IMG/VR virus record: IMGVR_UViG_3300037461_000547
Span: 1 to 64,000 of that record
DNA: 64,000 nucleotides
Reading direction: 5' to 3' (one strand)
DNA from: a virus
Lineage: Duplodnaviria; Caudoviricetes
Under the pieces are notes generated by a model. It saw only the letters and a program-made list of their open reading frames with translations. It searched no databases and was not told where the DNA came from. Both the position numbers and the translations under genes were made by a program. Positions 7,511 through 52,208 of this stretch are shown piece after piece (the stretch's first letter is position 1; every line of letters starts with the position of its first letter).

Positions 7511-9304
7511 TTAATTTCGTTTGAGTCCACGTTCTTTGGTTAAATCATTGAACTTATATTTACCTTGTTTATACATTTCCCACACTTCAGCTTTTGTTAA
7601 AACACCAGAGTAGACCATAACTTTATCAATGAGTCCGACCCATCCTGTTTGGCCGGGTGTAGCTAATCCCTCATTACGTCCGATTGCCCATTCATCCATT
7701 GTTGGCATCCAATCCATCGCCAAAAAATCAGTATAAGTTGCCAGTAAGACACCGTCCTGATATAAATATCTAAGACGCTCAGTCACCCAAACAACAACAA
7801 TATGATGCCAAACATCGTCTTTAATTGTTGGAAATGCGCCGCATAATGATGGTTCATTGGTTAAAGAGGACGTCCCTTTGGTTTTAATCTGAGCATAACC
7901 GCCATTAGAGAATACGCCTAAATAATTAGGGCTACCGCTGTTGTAACTAAAACTGATAAGGCATTTTGCTGTTTGTGAATCTGTCCCTTTAACCCACATT
8001 GAAACTGAAATAGGTAAACTCTGAACAGGACAAGCCGTTAAATTGTTAGCATACCATCCACCTGAAATTGAAATTGAATTATTGACGTAATAAAGATTAT
8101 CCGCGTTAATTGGACCATTATTGGATGAAACAACTGCTGAGGATGGTGTTAAATGATTAGTGCCTGTTGCATTTTTAACAGTGTTAGAGCCAGAAGTACC
8201 TGTAGATTCTTCACATCGTAAATAAACAACTCTTGTGTCTTGCCAATCCAATGAAGTTTGATAACCGTATCCATTTACAGTGTACGCCATTTTAGGTGTA
8301 CTATTTTCTGTGTAAGCAGGAAAACTTATTGTGACAATGGAACTGGAGTTACGATTAGTATCTTCTCCAATGTAGTTACATCTATCTTCAAGATCAGCAT
8401 GTAATCTAAAATAACGGACACCATCATAATCTCCGACACCATTTTGTGGATGATTGTGTGCTTGGAAAATCAATGGTTGGATTGTAAGAGCTTTTAAGGC
8501 AGCATGGATAGAAAGTTCTTCTGCTGTTTCAGTTCCAAGATTTTCAATTTGAATTATAGGATAGTGTGTGAATATGACTACAGCATATCCATTACTGTTT
8601 GCTTCTGTCAAACGTGCCAATACCCAATCTTCTTGATCCATAGTTTGGGGTGGGTCGCCTGATTGTCCTTCTTCATTTAACCAATGTGTTCCTCCAGTTG
8701 CAATACAAGCACTATGTAAAAAGATAAAACGAATAGTTGCTGTGCCTTTAGTTGAATCGACAACATACGCACAAGGACTATTATCAACAGCATTGACAGG
8801 CCACCAGTTCAAAGTAGGTGGATGTATAATCGGAATTAGTGATCCCAAACCTGTTTCTGTGTCAAACAATCGTGTAAAATCACTTGCTTCACCAACAGTT
8901 GGGCAATCTTCACAGTATGCGGCATTACCCCAACCATGGTCCCAATGCCCGAAAATTAAATACAATTCGTATCCACTGATTGTTGATACGTCATTGATAA
9001 ATCGAGCGTATCTAACTTCCCGATGTTGTCCTTCTGGTAAATGTAATTCACCATCAATTAAATCGCCCAGCGCAACTGCAAAATCAATATTGGCGGCGTT
9101 CCAACGTGAAATTGCTAAGGGAACGGAAACATTGTCATAACCACGCATACGGTCTGTTGAAATTATATACGATTCAGTTGCATGTGTGTCCGCAATCAAA
9201 CCAAGTTTCCACTGTGATGCTTGTGTAAATCTTGAGAAAGTAATCAACAATAAAAAATAAATGATTGTTCTTTTAATGAAAATATTATTTCTTTGTTTTT
9301 TCAT
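7511..9304 (-). CDS. Secreted metallophosphoesterase + LamG-like domain protein (paralogue A)
   Basis: Signal-like N-terminus; DTH, GDLID, GHWD, THYP, AHNH phosphoesterase motifs; C-terminal WHHIVVVW...LYQDGVL...GLIDKVMVYSGVLT LamG signature. Confidence 0.8.
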   Translation of the reverse strand: MKKQRNNIFIKRTIIYFLLLITFSRFTQASQWKLGLIADTHATESYIISTDRMRGYDNVSVPLAISRWNAANIDFAVALGDLIDGELHLPEGQHREVRYARFINDVSTISGYELYLIFGHWDHGWGNAAYCEDCPTVGEASDFTRLFDTETGLGSLIPIIHPPTLNWWPVNAVDNSPCAYVVDSTKGTATIRFIFLHSACIATGGTHWLNEEGQSGDPPQTMDQEDWVLARLTEANSNGYAVVIFTHYPIIQIENLGTETAEELSIHAALKALTIQPLIFQAHNHPQNGVGDYDGVRYFRLHADLEDRCNYIGEDTNRNSSSIVTISFPAYTENSTPKMAYTVNGYGYQTSLDWQDTRVVYLRCEESTGTSGSNTVKNATGTNHLTPSSAVVSSNNGPINADNLYYVNNSISISGGWYANNLTACPVQSLPISVSMWVKGTDSQTAKCLISFSYNSGSPNYLGVFSNGGYAQIKTKGTSSLTNEPSLCGAFPTIKDDVWHHIVVVWVTERLRYLYQDGVLLATYTDFLAMDWMPTMDEWAIGRNEGLATPGQTGWVGLIDKVMVYSGVLTKAEVWEMYKQGKYKFNDLTKERGLKRN

Positions 9305-13880: not shown

Positions 13881-15536
13881 TCATCTTGGACTTTCTACAC
13901 TCATGTTATTGGCAATAGATACCGCAATAGCGAGTGCTATTTCACTGTAATTACAAGCGTGTCCCCAGTGATCGGCGCCCACCGTTATATATTTTGCTAC
14001 GGCATTTCCACTTTTATCTTTCTCGTACTTACGAACTTGGTTCGTGATATGTTCACCAAACTCGTAAGGAAAATTCTTGGGAATTTGTACCGTATTTCTA
14101 ATGTAGCGTCCAAGTGAAAGGTCGAGCCACGAAGTACGGTCTACGGTGACGGATTGTTCTAAATCCTCAGTGAGCGTTATCTGTTTCCCACGCACATTGT
14201 TCCCGTAAAAGCAAAGGAACACATTACCCCAAAATCGAACTGCAAATTCATATGCTTTACGTCTCTCAGGATTTGCGTCGATAACCGACATACTTGGACG
14301 CCAACGGTACAAAAGATTATCGAGTTCTTCGAACTGTAACACTTTCCCGATTTCGAGATGTTTGGCTTTGGCTCCAACGTTAATATCGAGAGTAGTTTGT
14401 ATATCAGGGAGCGTCCACTCCGTAACAATGTAGTGTAGCCATTTCCCAACGTCGATACCCACAGTGATGATTTTGTTAATCTCAGTTGTGGGGTCTCCAT
14501 TTTTGTATTGACCTACACAGGCATTGACTTGACCGATGTCGATCGAGCCACCTTCTACGATGTGTGGGAGTCCAAGTTTTGAATTATAGAACTCTTGTTC
14601 ATCTGCTGGATTAGTCTGTGCATTTAAGTAGGACGTTGCAATCTCGTACGGTTCTACCGTACAACTATAAAGTTGGTTGACATGAAAACCACGGATTATA
14701 CGTCCTGGGTTTTCAGGCACCCAGATTCCTTTACCCAAATAATCGGGCTTGGTTGCGTGTGGCAGTTTTCCTTCACACAGAGGACACTTCAAATAGGATT
14801 CCCGAATTTTAGGGTCTTTAGGGTCATCCCCAATAATTACTATGGATTCTGGAAATCTTAATTCAATATGTCGCGAACACAAAGGACATGGGAAGTGGAA
14901 ATGTTCTTTAGTGCTGTCTTCGAAATATTTATTGATTCCATAGCTTGGGATTGTGGGTGTACTTATCATCCACGTCTGTTTATATAATTGTCCTGATTGG
15001 CGTTCAAAAGCCAAAGGTATGTTTTCCTGTGCCATCTCATCGACCTCATCAAAAATAAGAAGTCCAGCAGGCACGGATTTTAGACCTGAACGACTTTTGC
15101 TACCGCGAAGGTACAGATTTGCGGTACCCGCGCGTTTGTGTCCGATGTTTTTAACGTCTGAGAATAAAGTGCGCAAGTGTTCGGAGAGTTCTAACGCAGA
15201 ATCGAAACGTGATGCACTGAAATCAGCGGCATCCGGACGTTTGGCGGGGAATACATACATACAACTTAAGTTGTGAATGTCCATGACGTAAAACACGCGG
15301 TTAAGGCATGTTTCAGTGTATGCTGCTTGCGCACTCTTTTGCCCGACATTCACTTCAGCTTCTGAATTATGCATCTCTTTAGCCCAGGGGTGGTGTGTGA
15401 ATCTCCAAGGGCCTGGGAATGGCGGACCCATAATCCGATATTTTTCTGCCCAACGCGCACACGTTGTGACGGACTTGCGCTCAAGACCGCAACGAACCGC
15501 TGAAAGGAACGTGTTTTGCATTGTGTTGTTAATCAC
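13881..15536 (-). CDS. terL: Terminase large subunit (lambda GpA-like)
   Basis: KSAQAAYTE Walker A variant, LLIFDEVD Walker B, ISTPT motif, CPLC zinc motifs, VGIDVG nuclease motif, DHWGHA. Confidence 0.9.
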   Translation of the reverse strand: MINNTMQNTFLSAVRCGLERKSVTTCARWAEKYRIMGPPFPGPWRFTHHPWAKEMHNSEAEVNVGQKSAQAAYTETCLNRVFYVMDIHNLSCMYVFPAKRPDAADFSASRFDSALELSEHLRTLFSDVKNIGHKRAGTANLYLRGSKSRSGLKSVPAGLLIFDEVDEMAQENIPLAFERQSGQLYKQTWMISTPTIPSYGINKYFEDSTKEHFHFPCPLCSRHIELRFPESIVIIGDDPKDPKIRESYLKCPLCEGKLPHATKPDYLGKGIWVPENPGRIIRGFHVNQLYSCTVEPYEIATSYLNAQTNPADEQEFYNSKLGLPHIVEGGSIDIGQVNACVGQYKNGDPTTEINKIITVGIDVGKWLHYIVTEWTLPDIQTTLDINVGAKAKHLEIGKVLQFEELDNLLYRWRPSMSVIDANPERRKAYEFAVRFWGNVFLCFYGNNVRGKQITLTEDLEQSVTVDRTSWLDLSLGRYIRNTVQIPKNFPYEFGEHITNQVRKYEKDKSGNAVAKYITVGADHWGHACNYSEIALAIAVSIANNMSVESPR

Positions 15537-16113: not shown

Positions 16114-16441
16114 AATTGTCCTCTATTGTATTATCGTTGAAAATAGGTGTAAAATTCAATTGAAAATCAAAAAATTCAAAAAATATTTTAGTCGATTTTT
16201 TATTACCCTTGGGTTGTTGTGATTGTTACAATCATCATTTGACCCCACCACCCATACCCAGTACCTTTGTCCACAGGGGAAGTGTTGTACAGGTGTGGGA
16301 TATAGGTGTTTAGCGCGAGGTGCTTTTGGCGGGATATGGGGTTCTGATTTCAAAAATCCCAGAGGTGACACCATGTGGAGCGTCAGGGTTATCGACCTGG
16401 CGTGTCCACTTTCAGGAAAATAAACGACCCCCCAGGTCTTG

Positions 16442-16657
16442 TTATAAGTCCTGTATTTACAAGGATTTATGAAAAGTCGAGCAGCCATATCCACTATGAT
16501 TTATTAAATCAGCAGCCATATCCCGATACAGTTATACCGATATTCATAACTCCTGTATTTACAAGGATTTACATTTTTTGTCTTATTGGTCGAATGTCCC
16601 AAAACGATTTTTCAATAAAAAATAAAATCTTATAACTCTTTTATTCACAAGGATTTA
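16442..16657. repeat. Three ~28 bp imperfect palindromic direct repeats upstream of terS
   Basis: TCCTGTATTTACAAGGATTTA exact at 16449-16469 and 16551-16571; variant TATTCACAAGGATTTA at 16642-16657. Confidence 0.85.
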
Positions 16658-16938
16658 TGCGCTGATGTCGATATTCTGGATGTTCTTCTCTTCTTCGTGG
16701 ACTCTATAATTATTGCGACGGTGCGGGCAAGACCCTCGCAAACCTGCCTTGTGGTTACAAGGTGAAAATATAGTCCACGATATATCCGAGCCGATATGTC
16801 CGTAAAATATCTCCTGTGCGACAGAGGTGGTGAGCCATAGTCCCCGAAAGAGAGTTCCGGCAAGTTAGCAAGGATACAAGAGATTAGACAAAATCTACGT
16901 GGTGACGTGACTGTACTACCTACGGTGCAGCGGGAAAG

Positions 16939-17295
16939 ATGAGGTGCATCATGTTGATAAGAGCAATCCCCAACTATAAGTACCGTAGGAACGACCGAAA
17001 GGTTGTCGCTCTGGCTTGTCGGGAATCAGTAGAATTACCTGACAAGGCATGGAGGATGTACCGAAATCCCAAAACTATGACACGTAGCTGTGTTATAGGG
17101 ATGAAGGACGGGAAAGTGGTTACACTTCCAGCGATAAACTGGAAAATCAGAGACGATCGTGGTGGACGGCGCGCAAGAATCTACCAAAACAGTAAAGGTG
17201 TAGGATTCAAGACGAAAGTTGTCCACAAAACAAGAGTCAAGCCTGAAGTCAAAAAGTATACCGGCGAAATGTGCAAAGTTACTTATTTACTCTAA
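16939..17295 (+). CDS. Hypothetical basic early protein
   Basis: 118 aa, K/R rich; SD GAGGTG suggests the true start is 16951. Confidence 0.6.
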   Translation: MRCIMLIRAIPNYKYRRNDRKVVALACRESVELPDKAWRMYRNPKTMTRSCVIGMKDGKVVTLPAINWKIRDDRGGRRARIYQNSKGVGFKTKVVHKTRVKPEVKKYTGEMCKVTYLL

Positions 17296-17353
17296 AGAGA
17301 TTCGCTGCATCGTAGGTAGTACAGTCGAACGCCATCTTACTCTCCTTCCACAA

Positions 17354-17400
17354 CCCACACCCTGATTCATAGAGTCAGTGTTACTGGGTCAGGGTGTGGG
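17354..17400 (+). other. Long intergenic hairpin
   Basis: CCCACACCCTGA (17354-17365) / TCAGGGTGTGGG (17389-17400), perfect 12 bp stem. Confidence 0.75.
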
Positions 17401-17545
17401 CATACCTTTAGAGAGTCCCTTTTTAGGATTTGGGCGGTGGTTAAACCACAAGATCATCCCCATCTCGTAGAAAGCGCTTCTGTCGCGTGAGAAGCTGTAT
17501 TACAGGTAGCACAGTCACGTCGTACTGGTGGAAAGAGAGGTCGCT

Positions 17546-17887
17546 ATGTTCGCATTAGATTTAGGGCCAGTACCGAGTGAAGAAGAGTGTCAACAGTTCG
17601 GTACAGTTTCCTATGACGCTCTCCGAGCATGGAAAGAGTGTCAAGCATTCCAGCACCAGTTAGAACGCCAATTCAAAAAAGAATTAACAGAAGCTAATCC
17701 CAAAGCACCAGCACCAAAGATCATCAGAATCGCTGTCCACAAAGAACCTGAAGGTTACTATGAAGTAGTTGTCAAAGTAGAAGACGGCGCAAGTGATGAT
17801 GTAATTGCTCTGGCGTACACCATAGAAGAAAATCTACCACAACACTGGGACAAAGAAGCTAAAGATGAACTAAAAAGAATAGAATGA
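17546..17887 (+). CDS. Hypothetical early protein
   Basis: ORF with SD GAGG; LGPVPSEEECQQFG...WD pattern. Confidence 0.7.
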   Translation: MFALDLGPVPSEEECQQFGTVSYDALRAWKECQAFQHQLERQFKKELTEANPKAPAPKIIRIAVHKEPEGYYEVVVKVEDGASDDVIALAYTIEENLPQHWDKEAKDELKRIE

Positions 17888-18009
17888 TTTATTAAATCAG
17901 TACGACACTACCTGTGCTGCAGGTAGCACAGTCACGTTAAGCGTCCTGTCGCCATTGGAAGGCCTGTGGGGAAACTCACAATACCCCAACGGGGTAGAAA
18001 GGCCTAACA

Positions 18010-19284
18010 ATGGCTAAAGCTAAATCGATCTTTGAGTCAATGACGCAAGAAGATATGCAGAAGCTGATCGATGCGTCAGAAGTGACGCCTGCGGGTCAGA
18101 TTATGTATCAAGACGGTTTCATTGACCCTGAAGCCGAGGGCAAAGACCTTAAGTACGACTGGGACGCACAACCCAGAGAAACGACAGATGGAAGAGGGTT
18201 GGTCGATTCTATTCTTCGTTTAGGATTGATTGAACCTCCAACACTGGCGTTGTACGGTGGTGATGACGTCCCAGAAGTAGTTCGTGGACATCGTAGAATC
18301 GACGCCACGAAAATCAGTAAGACAGAACACCCAGAAGATTACAAGCGTATTTTCCCCAACGGTGTTCCTGTCAAGATTGCCGTCGGTAAAGTGGTCAATG
18401 GTAATCGGGTGGATTTAACGCACAAAGACATCTTTCTTCTGCGTGCGGACCACGATTTGGACTCTCTCAAAGAATCCTTACATTCAAAGATTGAGTGCTA
18501 CAAAATGGTATCCCCGCTGTTTCGCGCTGGGTTCACTTATGCAGAAGTAATTGAGAATACGTGGCGCACTGTGTCGCGTATCTTAAGCACAAAGTATAAT
18601 GAACTCAAAGATGAAATCGCAAAGACTCCTGCACGTAGCGTTCAACTTCAAATACTGGAAAGAAGCCAACATGGGAATTACCAGTTTTTGAAGGCTTTGA
18701 GTGATTCACCGAATCTCCTTGTAGAAGCATGGATGAACGGTGAACGGAACAAAGGTCCTAAATTCACACAAGCACAGATCAAAGGTCTGGCTTCAAAGTT
18801 CAAAAGTCTTCAGGCGGATGCGGGCAAAACTGCCGGTGCAGACGCATTAACTCAAGAAAATCCTGGCGATGCTTGGATTAAAGAGTTCAATGATGTCTTC
18901 ACAGAAATCAGTGTGCCTAAAGAAGCCAAAGAAGCCGGTCCAAAAATGGCAAAACGTGGCAAGATTGAAGAAATGCTCATTGCTGTTTCTTCAAAGACTG
19001 CACGCTTGGCTTTCCAATCTGTTCTCGGTGTGGAGAACGCAGAGAAACTGTTGAAAAACACCTATGACAAAGATGTCGCTGTGTTTGAATCAATCCGTGA
19101 ATCTGTCCCCAGCTTCGTAGAATTCGTGCTGATCAATGCGCCCCTAATGGAGCAAGACATTACCAAATCCGATGTTAAGAAATTGACAGAAGTGCTTGGT
19201 CTTGAATCTGCTCACAGTAAAGCGGCCCAAGCTGCTGCGAAGGGTGGCCGTTCAGCGAAACAAGAAACCGCAAAAGCAAAGTAA
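18010..19284 (+). CDS. ParB/Srx-like N-terminal domain protein
   Basis: LVDSILRLGLIEPP...VVRGHRRIDA ParB-like motif; 424 aa. Confidence 0.7.
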   Translation: MAKAKSIFESMTQEDMQKLIDASEVTPAGQIMYQDGFIDPEAEGKDLKYDWDAQPRETTDGRGLVDSILRLGLIEPPTLALYGGDDVPEVVRGHRRIDATKISKTEHPEDYKRIFPNGVPVKIAVGKVVNGNRVDLTHKDIFLLRADHDLDSLKESLHSKIECYKMVSPLFRAGFTYAEVIENTWRTVSRILSTKYNELKDEIAKTPARSVQLQILERSQHGNYQFLKALSDSPNLLVEAWMNGERNKGPKFTQAQIKGLASKFKSLQADAGKTAGADALTQENPGDAWIKEFNDVFTEISVPKEAKEAGPKMAKRGKIEEMLIAVSSKTARLAFQSVLGVENAEKLLKNTYDKDVAVFESIRESVPSFVEFVLINAPLMEQDITKSDVKKLTEVLGLESAHSKAAQAAAKGGRSAKQETAKAK

Positions 19285-19352
19285 ACGTGCTTAAATAGAA
19301 CACCCTGCGGGTCTTCCAATGGCGGCAGACGCAGACTATATGGGAGGCCAAA

Positions 19353-19544
19353 ATGCGTAAAGTCATAGAAACTTTGCTTCGGATTCTTCGAATCCATAAG
19401 AAGCAATATATCACCTATCAAAGACGTGCCGTTGACCCGTTGGAGTCAATGGTGAAAATGTATAAAAGGCAACCTTCAATTCGAGTACTGTTTCTATTAA
19501 GAAACACAACCAATGGATTACCAAAGTTGAAACTGAAACGGTAA
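19353..19544 (+). CDS. Small hypothetical basic protein
   Basis: SD GGAGG 5 nt before ATG; 63 aa. Confidence 0.5.
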   Translation: MRKVIETLLRILRIHKKQYITYQRRAVDPLESMVKMYKRQPSIRVLFLLRNTTNGLPKLKLKR

Positions 19545-19592
19545 AGAAGTAGACATAGTCTGCCGCTTAATGGCGACAGGAATCATCTATTA

Positions 19593-19704
19593 GGGGCGCA
19601 ATTGTGTGGCGATGAGGATACATCGTTAAAACACACAATGGGTTCAGAAAATACCCTTCCCAACGGATAAAAATTCGAGAACACGAATCCACGTGTTCCG
19701 CCCC
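19593..19704 (+). ncRNA. Unidentified multi-branched structured RNA
   Basis: Closing stem GGGGCG/CGCCCC; arms ATTGTGTG/CACACAAT, CGATG/CATCG, GGGT/ACCC, GAACACG/CGTGTTC. Confidence 0.55.
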
Positions 19705-19712
19705 GTCTATAC

Positions 19713-19929
19713 GCCCCCATAGCTCAATTGGTAGAGCGTCGAGTGTAGAAGCACAGGGAGATAATGCCGTGCCAATCGTAAGATTTGACGAATCTCTACG
19801 AAAAGGTTGTGGTCAATATGGGTTTGCTGCCCAGACCATCACGGAGAAATAATGCCCTGCTACCTTGAAGGCGTGCCCTGTAGGTTCGTCACTACGCTGG
19901 GCCTGTGGGTTCGAGTCCCACTGGGGGTA
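19713..19929 (+). ncRNA. tRNA-like RNA with a ~140 nt structured domain replacing the anticodon loop
   Basis: Acceptor GCCCCCA/TGGGGGT-A, D arm GCTC-AATTGGTA-GAGC, T arm GTGGG-TTCGAGT-CCCAC; no CCA; no canonical anticodon arm. Confidence 0.75.
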
Positions 19930-19962
19930 TTTGGTGACAGGACGACAGGAAGGACGGTCACT

Positions 19963-20232
19963 ATGGCAGAAACAGCACCTAAATCTTCGAAAGAAGTGAT
20001 GCGTGAAATCGCGGAGAAAAATACTATCCCAGAAGGATATTCTCTCGAACAAGAAATACACATATCGCTCGACGATACTTTGATTTCAGAGGTGGCGTGC
20101 CAACTCCTACGGTATAGAGTTCGCGCCATTCGTTTAGATGGCGAGTGGGAGTTACCAGAATGGGTGTATAAATCCGCAGAGGATATTGTTGATTCATACA
20201 TCCATGAACACTTTATCCATCGTAAAAGATAA
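19963..20232 (+). CDS. Hypothetical protein
   Basis: ATG at 19963 with SD AGGAAGGA; the longer track ORF overlaps the ncRNA. Confidence 0.6.
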   Translation: MAETAPKSSKEVMREIAEKNTIPEGYSLEQEIHISLDDTLISEVACQLLRYRVRAIRLDGEWELPEWVYKSAEDIVDSYIHEHFIHRKR

Positions 20233-20315
20233 CCCTTAAGATGTCGTCAATCCTGTCACCCAATGACGGTAGGACGATAGAAAGTGAGGTGCATATGAAT
20301 AGAGATAATCACTAA

Positions 20316-20849
20316 ATGTACGAAACCCTTGTATATCAAACCGTAGAAGGGGTGATTACAAGAATCGCGATTGTCAATTACAGTAGTGAAGTGTTCGGGT
20401 CATTGTTTGTGAATCCTGAATTTAAGAATAAGGATTGGCGCTCTCGCAAAATAGAGATTGTCGCAAATGATGCGTATTACTCTCCTTGTTGGATGTACCT
20501 TGATTTGGTTGCGGCACTTTCCAGACAATATGGAAATGCCGTCCCATGGGGCACAGCCGATGTACTACATCGCGTTGTCCCACACGTGAGTAAAGCATAC
20601 ATAGAAAATTACACACATCTTATGTTGCTTGACTACCGGACAGAGATTGATCGCGTCCATCATCTGGACTTGGTAGCGAACAAACAAATCAAGACCGTCT
20701 ATGAACGCGACATAACATGCCGGAACATTCACTTGTCAAAGATAATTACGATTCAACCAATCACAGACTACGAGAATGAACACGTCTATGAAATCGCACA
20801 ACAGACGTTAGAGAAAAACATGTACCCTGTAAAAGTCGTCCTGCAATAA
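20316..20849 (+). CDS. Hypothetical protein
   Basis: 177 aa ORF, last gene of the plus-strand early unit. Confidence 0.65.
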   Translation: MYETLVYQTVEGVITRIAIVNYSSEVFGSLFVNPEFKNKDWRSRKIEIVANDAYYSPCWMYLDLVAALSRQYGNAVPWGTADVLHRVVPHVSKAYIENYTHLMLLDYRTEIDRVHHLDLVANKQIKTVYERDITCRNIHLSKIITIQPITDYENEHVYEIAQQTLEKNMYPVKVVLQ

Positions 20850-20851
20850 CC

Positions 20852-20892
20852 AAACGCCCGTATCTCGTTATGAGGTACGGGCGTTTTTTTAT
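20852..20892 (+). terminator. Rho-independent terminator
   Basis: AAACGCCCGTATCTC / GAGGTACGGGCGTTT stem followed by T7, just after the 20849 stop. Confidence 0.85.
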
Positions 20893-20934
20893 TGATTCAA
20901 CGCATCGTTAGTGTGATTTTCAAAAATCAGAATA

Positions 20935-51248: not shown

Positions 51249-52208
51249 TTACTTTGTCAAGTTTGCTTCAATCTCAACAGCTTTCTTTGCAGCATCTGCA
51301 GCTTTCTGTTTTTCACGTTCAGCTTTCCGACGTTGCTTGGCTTCTTCTCTTGAACGTTTTCGCTGTTCATCTAAAATCTGTGCAGCTTCAATCGACTTCT
51401 GATCAAGATGCAGTACCCACTGTAGCGTCAGCATCGCGGCATCCACAGGATTCTTAACCCCAAACTCTTTAATAAGAGCTGGAAGAATCTGCGGGGTCGT
51501 CAATTCAGATTTGAGGACAGAAACTTTCTGGAGGTGTGCAATCGGAACAAACTCAGCAGCTTCAACTTTCTTACCCTGCCGACGGGCTTCCCGAATCTCT
51601 TTTGCGCGTTGCTGAATGAGGGGTACAAACTCATTGGGCTTCATCGTTTGTGCCCTATCAACGAAGGCAGCTTGTTCATCCGGCGGGAGTTTAGCAAGGG
51701 CATACGCGTTGGAAAGATTGATTTTTTCCTCATCGACAAGTGCGCCGATATTCTTGTCAAGGCGAAGTAAGCCAAGACGCTCGCCAACCCAAGTAGGACT
51801 CTTTGACAATTTTGTAGCCAGCTCGGAAATTGTCATTGTCGCGTTGCAACCCAAAATCTTCTGCAACTGTTTGCTGTACTCGACGGGCTTAGTTTCAATG
51901 CGGTGAACATTTGCTAAGACCTGTGCCTCAAGGACTTGTGCGTCCGAGAGTTTCATAATGTGAACTGGGATTTCGGGAATCCCTGCGTCACAGCACGCCG
52001 AAAAACGCTGGAGACCATCAACCAACTCAAAGAAATCTTTGCCGTCAACACTCTTGGGGCGGACAACGATCGGGTTCAATAATCCGTTCTGTTTGATTGA
52101 CGCCATCAAATTTTGATAATCTTCAGCTTCCTTGTTTACGCCACGCAAAGCAACTTCATTCGGGACGATTTCGGTAATCGCAATTGTTTTAACTTCTGTC
52201 TTTTGCAT
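51249..52208 (-). CDS. ParB/RepB/Spo0J family protein
   Basis: LMASIKQNGLLNPIVVRP...LVDGLQRFSA...VLANVHR, HTH MTISELATKLSKSPTWV. Confidence 0.85.
   Translation of the reverse strand: MQKTEVKTIAITEIVPNEVALRGVNKEAEDYQNLMASIKQNGLLNPIVVRPKSVDGKDFFELVDGLQRFSACCDAGIPEIPVHIMKLSDAQVLEAQVLANVHRIETKPVEYSKQLQKILGCNATMTISELATKLSKSPTWVGERLGLLRLDKNIGALVDEEKINLSNAYALAKLPPDEQAAFVDRAQTMKPNEFVPLIQQRAKEIREARRQGKKVEAAEFVPIAHLQKVSVLKSELTTPQILPALIKEFGVKNPVDAAMLTLQWVLHLDQKSIEAAQILDEQRKRSREEAKQRRKAEREKQKAADAAKKAVEIEANLTK

Follow-up and report, generated by a model that had tools for sequence, protein, structure and literature searches.

The rightward operon and its brackets

The window analysed here spans the first 64,000 nucleotides of an IMG/VR virus record of 81,331 bp (IMGVR_UViG_3300037461_000547; Caudoviricetes) that is 89% complete. 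Between two blocks of leftward genes it holds a rightward unit in which inverted repeats enclose individual open reading frames (ORFs), and these enclosing repeats, termed brackets below, are the subject of this analysis. The first block extends to 16.1 kb and includes the gpA-type large terminase (terL), encoded leftward at 13881-15536; leftward genes from 21.3 kb on include PolA, class II ribonucleotide reductase, a UvrD-type helicase and a canonical ParB. In the unit in between, a non-coding region of ~700 nt is accompanied by six ORFs (16939-20849) and by a tRNA-shaped RNA; its intrinsic terminator is the sole strong one on the + strand within 16.0-21.5 kb. An RNA polymerase gene was not seen among the phage proteins scanned, and transcription by the host polymerase is therefore assumed; a search for sigma-70 promoters upstream of the operon gave no convincing match. 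The small ORFs of the operon had no Pfam or PHROG match, and Rfam at gathering and E ≤ 1 thresholds returned nothing relevant inside it.

ORF3 had been called ParB-like from the sequence, a designation borne out by profile match, domain content and predicted structure. A profile of 12 family members matched Spo0J (1vz0, E = 4e-6) and Noc when compared with PDB, PF02195 was present in three of the 12, and the best Foldseek matches of the AlphaFold model (predicted local distance difference test score 78) were ParB, Noc and KorB (E = 1e-4). These predictions support the presence of a ParB N-terminal domain and a helix-turn-helix (HTH) DNA-binding domain.

The inverted repeats listed in an earlier reading of the sequence (the original prediction) were all recovered at the same coordinates, both in the sequence and by repeat search (Table 1).

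Table 1. Coordinates of features in and around the rightward operon (SD, Shine-Dalgarno sequence, is used in the text; arms are the two halves of an inverted repeat)
Feature	Position	Strand	Details
Upstream non-coding region with three 30-nt direct repeats	16442-16471, 16544-16573, 16630-16659	+	Repeat search, families D1 and D3
Bracket 1	16899-17335	+	5' arm 16899-16933 (core 16909-16932), 3' arm 17302-17335 (core 17303-17326)
'Empty bracket' hairpin	17354-17400	+	12-bp stem CCCACACCCTGA / TCAGGGTGTGGG, 23-nt loop, pair probability 0.999
Bracket 2	17494-17932	+	Composite 5' arm 17494-17543, ORF2 17546-17887, composite 3' arm 17885-17932
Outer helix around brackets 3 and 4	17935-17943/19564-19572	+	Closing helix of a three-way junction in the predicted fold, 0-2 nt linkers
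Bracket 3	17946-19328	+	5' arm 17946-17971, ParB/KorB-like ORF3 18010-19284, 3' arm 19303-19328
Bracket 4	19323-19566	+	5' arm 19331-19339 (alternative register 19323-19331), ORF4 19353-19544
Bracket 5 (weaker)	19929-20264	+	5' arm 19929-19942, ORF5 19963-20232, 3' arm 20251-20264
ORF6 region	20270-20849	+	ORF6 20316-20849; weak flank pairing 20270-20278/20835-20843 and 20288-20294/20820-26
Intrinsic terminator at operon end	20852-20894 (also given as 20852-20886)	+	16-bp GC-rich hairpin followed by T run; inverted repeat I4

The minimum free energy (MFE) fold of positions 16690-20900 reproduced all brackets; pair probabilities were computed on sub-fragments of the transcript. The loop of bracket 1 is ORF1 (16939/16951-17295, no family match), and its repeat (I1, 16909-16932/17303-17326) is 24 nt long and 96% matched, with a G.U pair as the lone mismatch; in the MFE fold it forms a 26-bp helix with a mean pair probability of 0.99. 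Bracket 2 contains GTCGTACTG at 17519-17527 paired with CAGTACGAC at 17898-17906, and its predicted helices include 17519-17529/17896-17906 and 17506-17514/17912-17920 (pair probabilities of 0.99). In bracket 3 the repeat (I3) spans 26 nt with 81% Watson-Crick pairs, and all five remaining positions are G.U. Bracket 4, also present in the MFE fold, pairs GCAGACTAT at 19331-19339 with ATAGTCTGC at 19555-19563, its 3' arm (alternative register 19558-19566). A perfect 13-nt pairing (I19, 17944-17956/19569-19581, 100%) forms an alternative in the region of the outer helix. The 14-nt repeat of bracket 5 (I22, 93%, 13/14) has arms that are variants of the TCCTGTCGCCATT motif. A bracket around ORF6 is doubtful, because the 3' partners fall within the coding sequence.

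Strength of flank pairing across the genome

Flank pairing was surveyed over the entire 81-kb genome: 98 non-overlapping genes were called, and for each one the best RNA duplex was calculated between 70 nt of sequence ahead of the start and 70 nt past the stop. ORF1, ORF3, ORF2 and ORF4 gave the top four values (-60.9, -59.0, -54.9 and -42.8 kcal/mol, respectively), against a genome median of -19.2 kcal/mol and -30.6 kcal/mol for the next best gene. Outside the operon, inverted repeats of 16 nt or more, sought over the whole genome, were limited to AT-rich pairs of 16-19 nt with two mismatches, and the bracket motifs were confined to 16.9-20.3 kb of the genome. The repeats thus exceed chance by far, and the feature is real and statistically extreme.

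Brackets in uncultured relatives

A DNA similarity search of 50,697 phage records returned no match, and the ORF3 protein was likewise unmatched there; used as a single query against viral contigs, ORF3 again found nothing. Relatives were retrieved via protein-cluster search and via terL. The best terL match among cultured phages was just 24-27% identical, and therefore no cultured model exists. The terminase search brought up 44 viral contigs with 24-55% identity, while five homologues of ORF3 (50-59% identity) were found on contigs L048, L049, L052, L055 and L057, which are syntenic and share the bracket layout.

Chains of inverted repeats were also present in at least eight distant uncultured relatives with terL 43-55% identical to that of the window (L006, L008, L010, L023, L024, L025, L031 and L037). 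In these, repeats of 20-32 nt, many of them perfect (25/25, 29/29), lie in the region divergent from terL; the loop of each is taken up by a single sense ORF, and often just 0-3 nt separate one bracket from the next. Across the eight and the closer L048, L049, L052 and L057, bracket arms measured 18-32 nt with a median of 25. On the operon side of terL, 29 inverted repeats of at least 20 nt fell within 183 kb, against 7 weak ones in 359 kb on the opposite side, a roughly eightfold difference in density, and MFE folds of the operons of four relatives reproduced every bracket.

The longest bracket in each relative holds, in every case, a gene of ~370-435 amino acids that is a distant homologue of ORF3, and a strong flank duplex was found in all 12 non-redundant ORF3 homologues with flanks available. 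Arm sequences are unrelated between lineages, even at the homologous position around the ParB gene (8 lineages), and the small bracketed ORFs are mostly non-homologous from phage to phage, including those whose brackets have the outer arm core in common. Judging from these sequence comparisons, the structure is conserved across a diverse uncultured phage lineage while its sequence is not.

Several 'empty brackets' were noted, at 17127-17212 and 18455-18509 of L024 and 9247-9309 of L006 (both as reverse complement) and at 17354-17400 of the window. These are perfect stems of 12-26 bp with loops of just 15-34 nt, placed where neighbours hold ORF-containing brackets, which suggests gene loss from helix loops or gene insertion into them. 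The hairpin of the window resembles the CCACAGCCCAC-type bracket arms that surround 50-170 nt in L048, L049 and L052.

A 64-kb contig identical to one of the distant relatives, L023 (the same as L053), was found in the bin of a Candidatus Cloacimonadota metagenome-assembled genome. This placement is the sole host hint for the lineage; it concerns L023 alone and has no bearing on the host of the window phage.

Covariation and strand preference

Conserved complementarity would by itself fit pairing in RNA or repeats in DNA. Covariation of the stems in relatives, which the original prediction had named as a way to judge them, was found in the helix around the ParB gene: in an alignment of five phages, 8 of the 27 pairs were altered on both sides and 95.6% of cells were standard pairs. 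Values this high occurred in none of 500 shuffles, and pairing fell to 34-47% when the partner was shifted by 1-3 columns. The non-Watson-Crick cells comprised 15 G.U and 1 A.C on the sense strand; in duplex DNA, G.T is no better than A.C.

A similar asymmetry was seen more widely. Over 37 brackets, the sense RNA duplex was the better one in 20 and the antisense duplex in 9 (mean difference -3.1 kcal/mol, Wilcoxon p = 0.004), and all ParB-gene brackets favoured the sense strand. Among plain mismatches in the arms, U.U and C.U were commoner than A.A and A.G. Placement of the arms also follows the sense strand: the distance from the end of the 5' arm to the start codon is typically 11-19 nt, and in small ORFs the stop codon is followed after 2-9 nt by the 3' arm.

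Covariation with a G.U bias, strand asymmetry and arm placement are best read as favouring sense RNA, at the level of sequence. The proposal in the original prediction that stems in the transcript close whole cistrons is in part supported, by a layout conserved without its sequence, by compensatory changes and by the excess of G.U over A.C on the sense strand.

Proposed processing of the operon transcript

We put at roughly 60% the probability that the repeats are long-range sense-RNA helices which close each cistron and which are most likely cut by host RNase III into end-paired monocistronic mRNAs. In such a scheme, a single rightward operon, stretching from about 16.9 kb up to its terminator (20.85 kb), would be transcribed as one unit, and in the cell the sequence past each stop codon would pair, during transcription, with the sequence ahead of the SD of the same cistron. 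This pairing would yield a nearly perfect helix of 20-32 bp with the ORF in its loop, and neighbouring helices would abut. Host RNase III, which is specific for double strands, would then cut the helices as it does at 16S and 23S rRNA stems, converting the polycistronic RNA to single-gene messages whose 5' and 3' ends would still be paired and protected, with possible effects on stability or translation.

RNase III substrates need a minimum of roughly two helical turns, and the enzyme is known to cut the stalks of 16S and 23S rRNA and intercistronic sites in the early transcripts of T7. Processing by RNase III was ranked first because helices of 20-32 bp fit the size of its substrates and because long-range intramolecular mRNA duplexes are known to be cut by it in B. 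subtilis (PMC11780869). By analogy, the most likely function of the helices is processing by host RNase III or clamping of the mRNA ends. A second layer belongs to this reading at the ParB-like gene, where the helix also appears to work as a translational switch, a possibility that the original prediction had not raised; the predicted folds behind it, described with the first alternative below, count in favour of the main reading too. The cutting enzyme would be that of the host, because the phage record is without RNase III, RtcB and RNA ligase families.

A number of observations weigh against this reading. The flank duplexes of ORF6 (-30.3 kcal/mol) and ORF5 (-28.7 kcal/mol, a value for which the start codon used was too early) are no stronger than the genome background. 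Antisense folds were better in 9 of the 29 informative brackets, and many small-ORF brackets are perfectly complementary, so that they carry no strand information and fit a DNA-level repeat equally well. The partition function of the isolated fragment 17925-19600 gave a probability of ~0.25 for the long-range ParB-gene helix versus ~0.74 for a local fold, ~0.2 for bracket 4, and just 0.14 and 0.001 for the outer helix and I19, respectively. RNase III itself (PF00636, PF14622) was not found in the phage record, and part of the helix would be opened by any ribosome that terminates 2-9 nt ahead of the 3' arm. A weak point against it, and a difference from rRNA operons, is the leader: allowing up to 3 mismatches, boxA (TGYTCTTTRAMAA) had no + strand match in 16640-16940, with total matches at the level of chance, a result to be read with the proviso that the consensus may not be that of the host. 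Finally, processing by RNase III is predicted from sequences and folds of phages of which no relative is cultured.

Alternative explanations

The best of the alternatives, considerably less probable than cleavage, is that the helices form in RNA that stays uncut and act as devices for translation or stability, the 5' arm masking the ribosome-binding site (RBS) until the 3' arm displaces it. Each cistron would then be translated only once fully transcribed, with both ends clamped and insulated from its neighbours. Much of the support comes from the ParB-gene leader, in which the 5' arm is predicted to pair alternatively with its own SD and AUG (17953-17968 with 17977-18012); the computed energies of the local and long-range folds are nearly equal. 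This local 'off' fold was predicted in all six phages of the ORF3 subgroup, where 12-16 of 20 RBS/start nucleotides pair with the 5' arm if the 3' arm is left out. RNAalifold kept the pairing GCCAUUG:CAAUGGC in 5 of the 6, and the AUG lies within it in 6/6. The 12-nt core of the arm would be invariant at ~50-59% protein identity because it pairs with this start region. The outer 8-13 nt of the 5' arm are free in the local fold and could, on this model, serve as a toehold for displacement by the 3' arm. Before the 3' arm is made, the 5' arm of ORF3 would thus fold onto its own ribosome-binding site and AUG, and the 3' arm, which is similar to the ribosome-binding site, would then displace that site from the 5' arm; the folds suggest a model in which translation of the ParB-like gene is unlocked only after the end of the cistron has been transcribed.

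Pairing of this kind also extends to other genes. The 3' arm of bracket 3 can alternatively pair with, and so mask, the SD of ORF4 (p ~0.65-0.7 in the fragment 17925-19600), and over 25 brackets 215 of 488 RBS/start nucleotides paired with an arm, compared with 152 ± 21 for shuffled arms (1 of 200 shuffles as high). Known parallels are the 5'-3' pairings in hok mRNA and icaR. Against such devices as the general rule, pairing of the RBS with the 5' arm is absent in several lineages (L008, L010, L025), and in many small-ORF brackets the SD follows directly after a perfect helix. Moreover, near-perfect duplexes of 25-29 bp are substrates of RNase III and are unlikely to be spared where the enzyme exists.

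That the repeats are DNA sites, serving inversion, excision or inter-phage exchange of single-gene cassettes, or else structures of single-stranded DNA, is improbable. Many arms are perfect repeats, and the enclosed small ORFs are mostly unrelated despite a common bracket core, as would be expected of exchangeable cassettes. However, arms vary by bracket and by phage, so that no single site-specific recombinase could recognise them, and the operon ORFs are without a Pfam or PHROG recombinase match. The bias of mismatches to G.U and to pyrimidine-pyrimidine on the sense strand would be meaningless for duplex DNA, and the arms are placed according to sense-strand SD and stop codons. In a small sample of independent assemblies that were near-identical or closely related, all eight pairs compared were collinear, and no inverted cassette was seen. 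Inversion or excision of cassettes, which the original prediction had offered as an alternative, therefore found no support, the arms lacking a common recombinase site and the eight assembly pairs being collinear.

Two contigs of 1.43 kb bear on the same alternative, and can be counted in its favour, as each runs from the 5' arm of the bracket around the ParB gene to a point 9 nt inside the 3' arm. The two, L055 (1-1429) and L056 (1-1425), come from two assemblies (JGI 3300035305 and SRR11675902) that probably derive from the same sample. Such ends could reflect an assembly break at an inverted repeat, excised DNA or, should the library be a metatranscriptome, a processed RNA.

Still less probable is the explanation, limited to the ORF3 subgroup, that the common CTGTCGCCA..TGGCGACAG units are parS- or operator-like palindromic sites for the ParB/KorB-like protein, the gene-flanking repeats being a by-product. 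It would suit the ParB N-terminal domain and HTH fold of ORF3, the near-palindromic copies clustered downstream of the gene in L048, L049 and L052, and a 12-nt core (CTGTCGCCATTG) that is invariant in six phages though their ORF3 proteins are only ~50-59% identical. The invariant core is, however, explained equally well by pairing with the start codon region CAAUGGC. Around ORF3, the gene itself separates the two halves by 1.4 kb, and pairing runs 14 or more nt beyond the core, with compensatory changes. In addition, local 'palindromes' are asymmetric in each copy yet match their distant partner (L048 7564-7584 vs 8332-8352), and the brackets of other lineages have unique arms with no common motif.

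Ligation of the cleaved, paired ends into circular single-gene mRNAs, also raised in the original prediction, found no support and is hardly credible: the geometry would place 5' and 3' ends together, and archaeal rRNA stems of similar layout do give circular intermediates, but no RtcB or RNA ligase family gene was found in the phage record (89% complete), the helices are perfect and without a bulge-helix-bulge motif, and RNase III products, with their 5'-phosphate, 3'-OH and 2-nt overhang, are unsuited to known bacterial ligases, none of which, to our knowledge, seals ends of this type.

Comparison with known systems

The closest likeness of the brackets is to the RNase III stalks of rRNA operons, in which the flanks of a long RNA pair across hundreds to thousands of nt over ~20-30 bp, successive helices occur in one polycistronic transcript, and pairing is conserved while sequence drifts. 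Flanking helices of at least about 20 bp are present here as well (24-26 bp at ORF1 and ORF3, composite at ORF2), with pairing kept by the compensatory changes at 8 of the 27 pairs. The looped-out units differ in being phage protein-coding cistrons of 50-430 codons, and no boxA was found in the leader with a consensus that may belong to another host. The long-range RNase III substrates of B. subtilis (PMC11780869) differ in that they are scattered cellular cases, with no helix-per-cistron layout conserved across a virus lineage.

Early RNase III sites of phage T7 (R0.3, R0.5, R1, R1.1 and R1.3) are alike in being intercistronic double-stranded elements in a phage operon transcribed by the host. 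The T7 sites separate the early messages and stabilise them. They are local hairpins with internal loops between genes, whereas the strands here flank the gene, are mostly perfect, and form arms on opposite sides of the ORF, 167-1400 nt apart. Only the 'empty brackets', such as that at 17354-17400, resemble hairpins of the T7 type.

Pairing of both ends of one mRNA is also found in icaR of Staphylococcus aureus, where an interaction between the 5' and 3' untranslated regions (UTRs) controls translation and creates an RNase III site (PMC3868564), and in hok mRNA of plasmid R1, where a 5'-3' fold-back gives an inert, stable form. In icaR the 3'UTR masks the SD and is repressive, whereas here the long-range helix is placed ahead of the SD, which, at the ParB-like gene, it is predicted to make accessible. 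The 3' arm pairs with the 5' arm, leaving the SD outside the helix, and it is the 5' arm that is the potential mask of the SD.

Inverted repeats tied to small units are likewise a feature of integron attC cassettes, which carry one ORF each, and of Correia elements. The latter are repeat-enclosed elements of Neisseria, and RNase III binds or cleaves their repeats once these have been transcribed (PMC2649163). Both have a family consensus for a transposase or integrase and keep their arms together, unlike the brackets, whose arms are unique to each gene and which come with no recombinase: neither a consensus common to the arms of different brackets and phages nor a recombinase among the operon ORFs was found.

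The original prediction knew of no described phage system with this layout, and a literature search likewise found no published account of phage operons with one long-range helix per cistron. By analogy, the brackets are best read as the known stalk logic of RNase III applied to each mRNA cistron, and this application would be the new part.

Possible consequences

If processing at the brackets is as proposed, a whole phage lineage would express an operon by looping out every cistron, much as cellular rRNA is matured, and the stalk logic of RNase III would extend from stable RNAs to messenger RNAs. In this general way, every gene in a polycistronic RNA could have a lifetime and a translational on-switch to itself. 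The brackets would also be natural cases of long-range toehold-like riboregulation and a source of natural insulator parts for synthetic operons, and would help to explain how unrelated small phage genes are swapped with their expression context kept.

More speculatively, and on balance unlikely, phages of this lineage may keep their accessory genes in RNA-defined 'slots', in which the helix would give any enclosed ORF autonomous processing, end protection and completion-dependent, toehold-like translation. The arms would then be break points for swapping of cargo, in a cassette system built on mRNA structure and not on a recombinase.

Other features of the operon region

Each of the three 30-nt direct repeats in the upstream non-coding region includes the near-palindrome TCCTGTATTTACAAGGA; the spacings between the repeats are 102 and 86 nt, and there is also a partial copy near 16750. 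From their sequence and position, the repeats are candidate operator or promoter elements of the operon, and their TCCTGTATTTACAAGGA units are candidate operators for the ParB/KorB-like ORF3 or for a second ParB. This second protein is the canonical one (PF02195 and ParB HTH domain), encoded at 51249-52208 (-) in the replication module, so that the phage has two ParB-family proteins.

No family match was found for a 112-amino-acid ORF at 16156-16494 (-), which shares sequence with the repeat-rich non-coding region and is unlikely to be a genuine gene. The 17-nt sequence ATGATTTATTAAATCAG forms an exact direct repeat, with copies at 16496-16512, in the upstream non-coding region, and at 17884-17900, across the stop codon of ORF2 and the start of its 3' arm.

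ARAGORN called no tRNA in the window or in 11 relatives. A tRNA-shaped non-coding RNA of 216 nt (19713-19928, +), called neither by ARAGORN nor by Rfam, lies in the operon directly ahead of the ORF5 bracket. Its predicted fold (-82.5 kcal/mol, z = -2.3) has a 7-bp acceptor-like closing helix, D and T arms and an expanded anticodon domain of ~140 nt.

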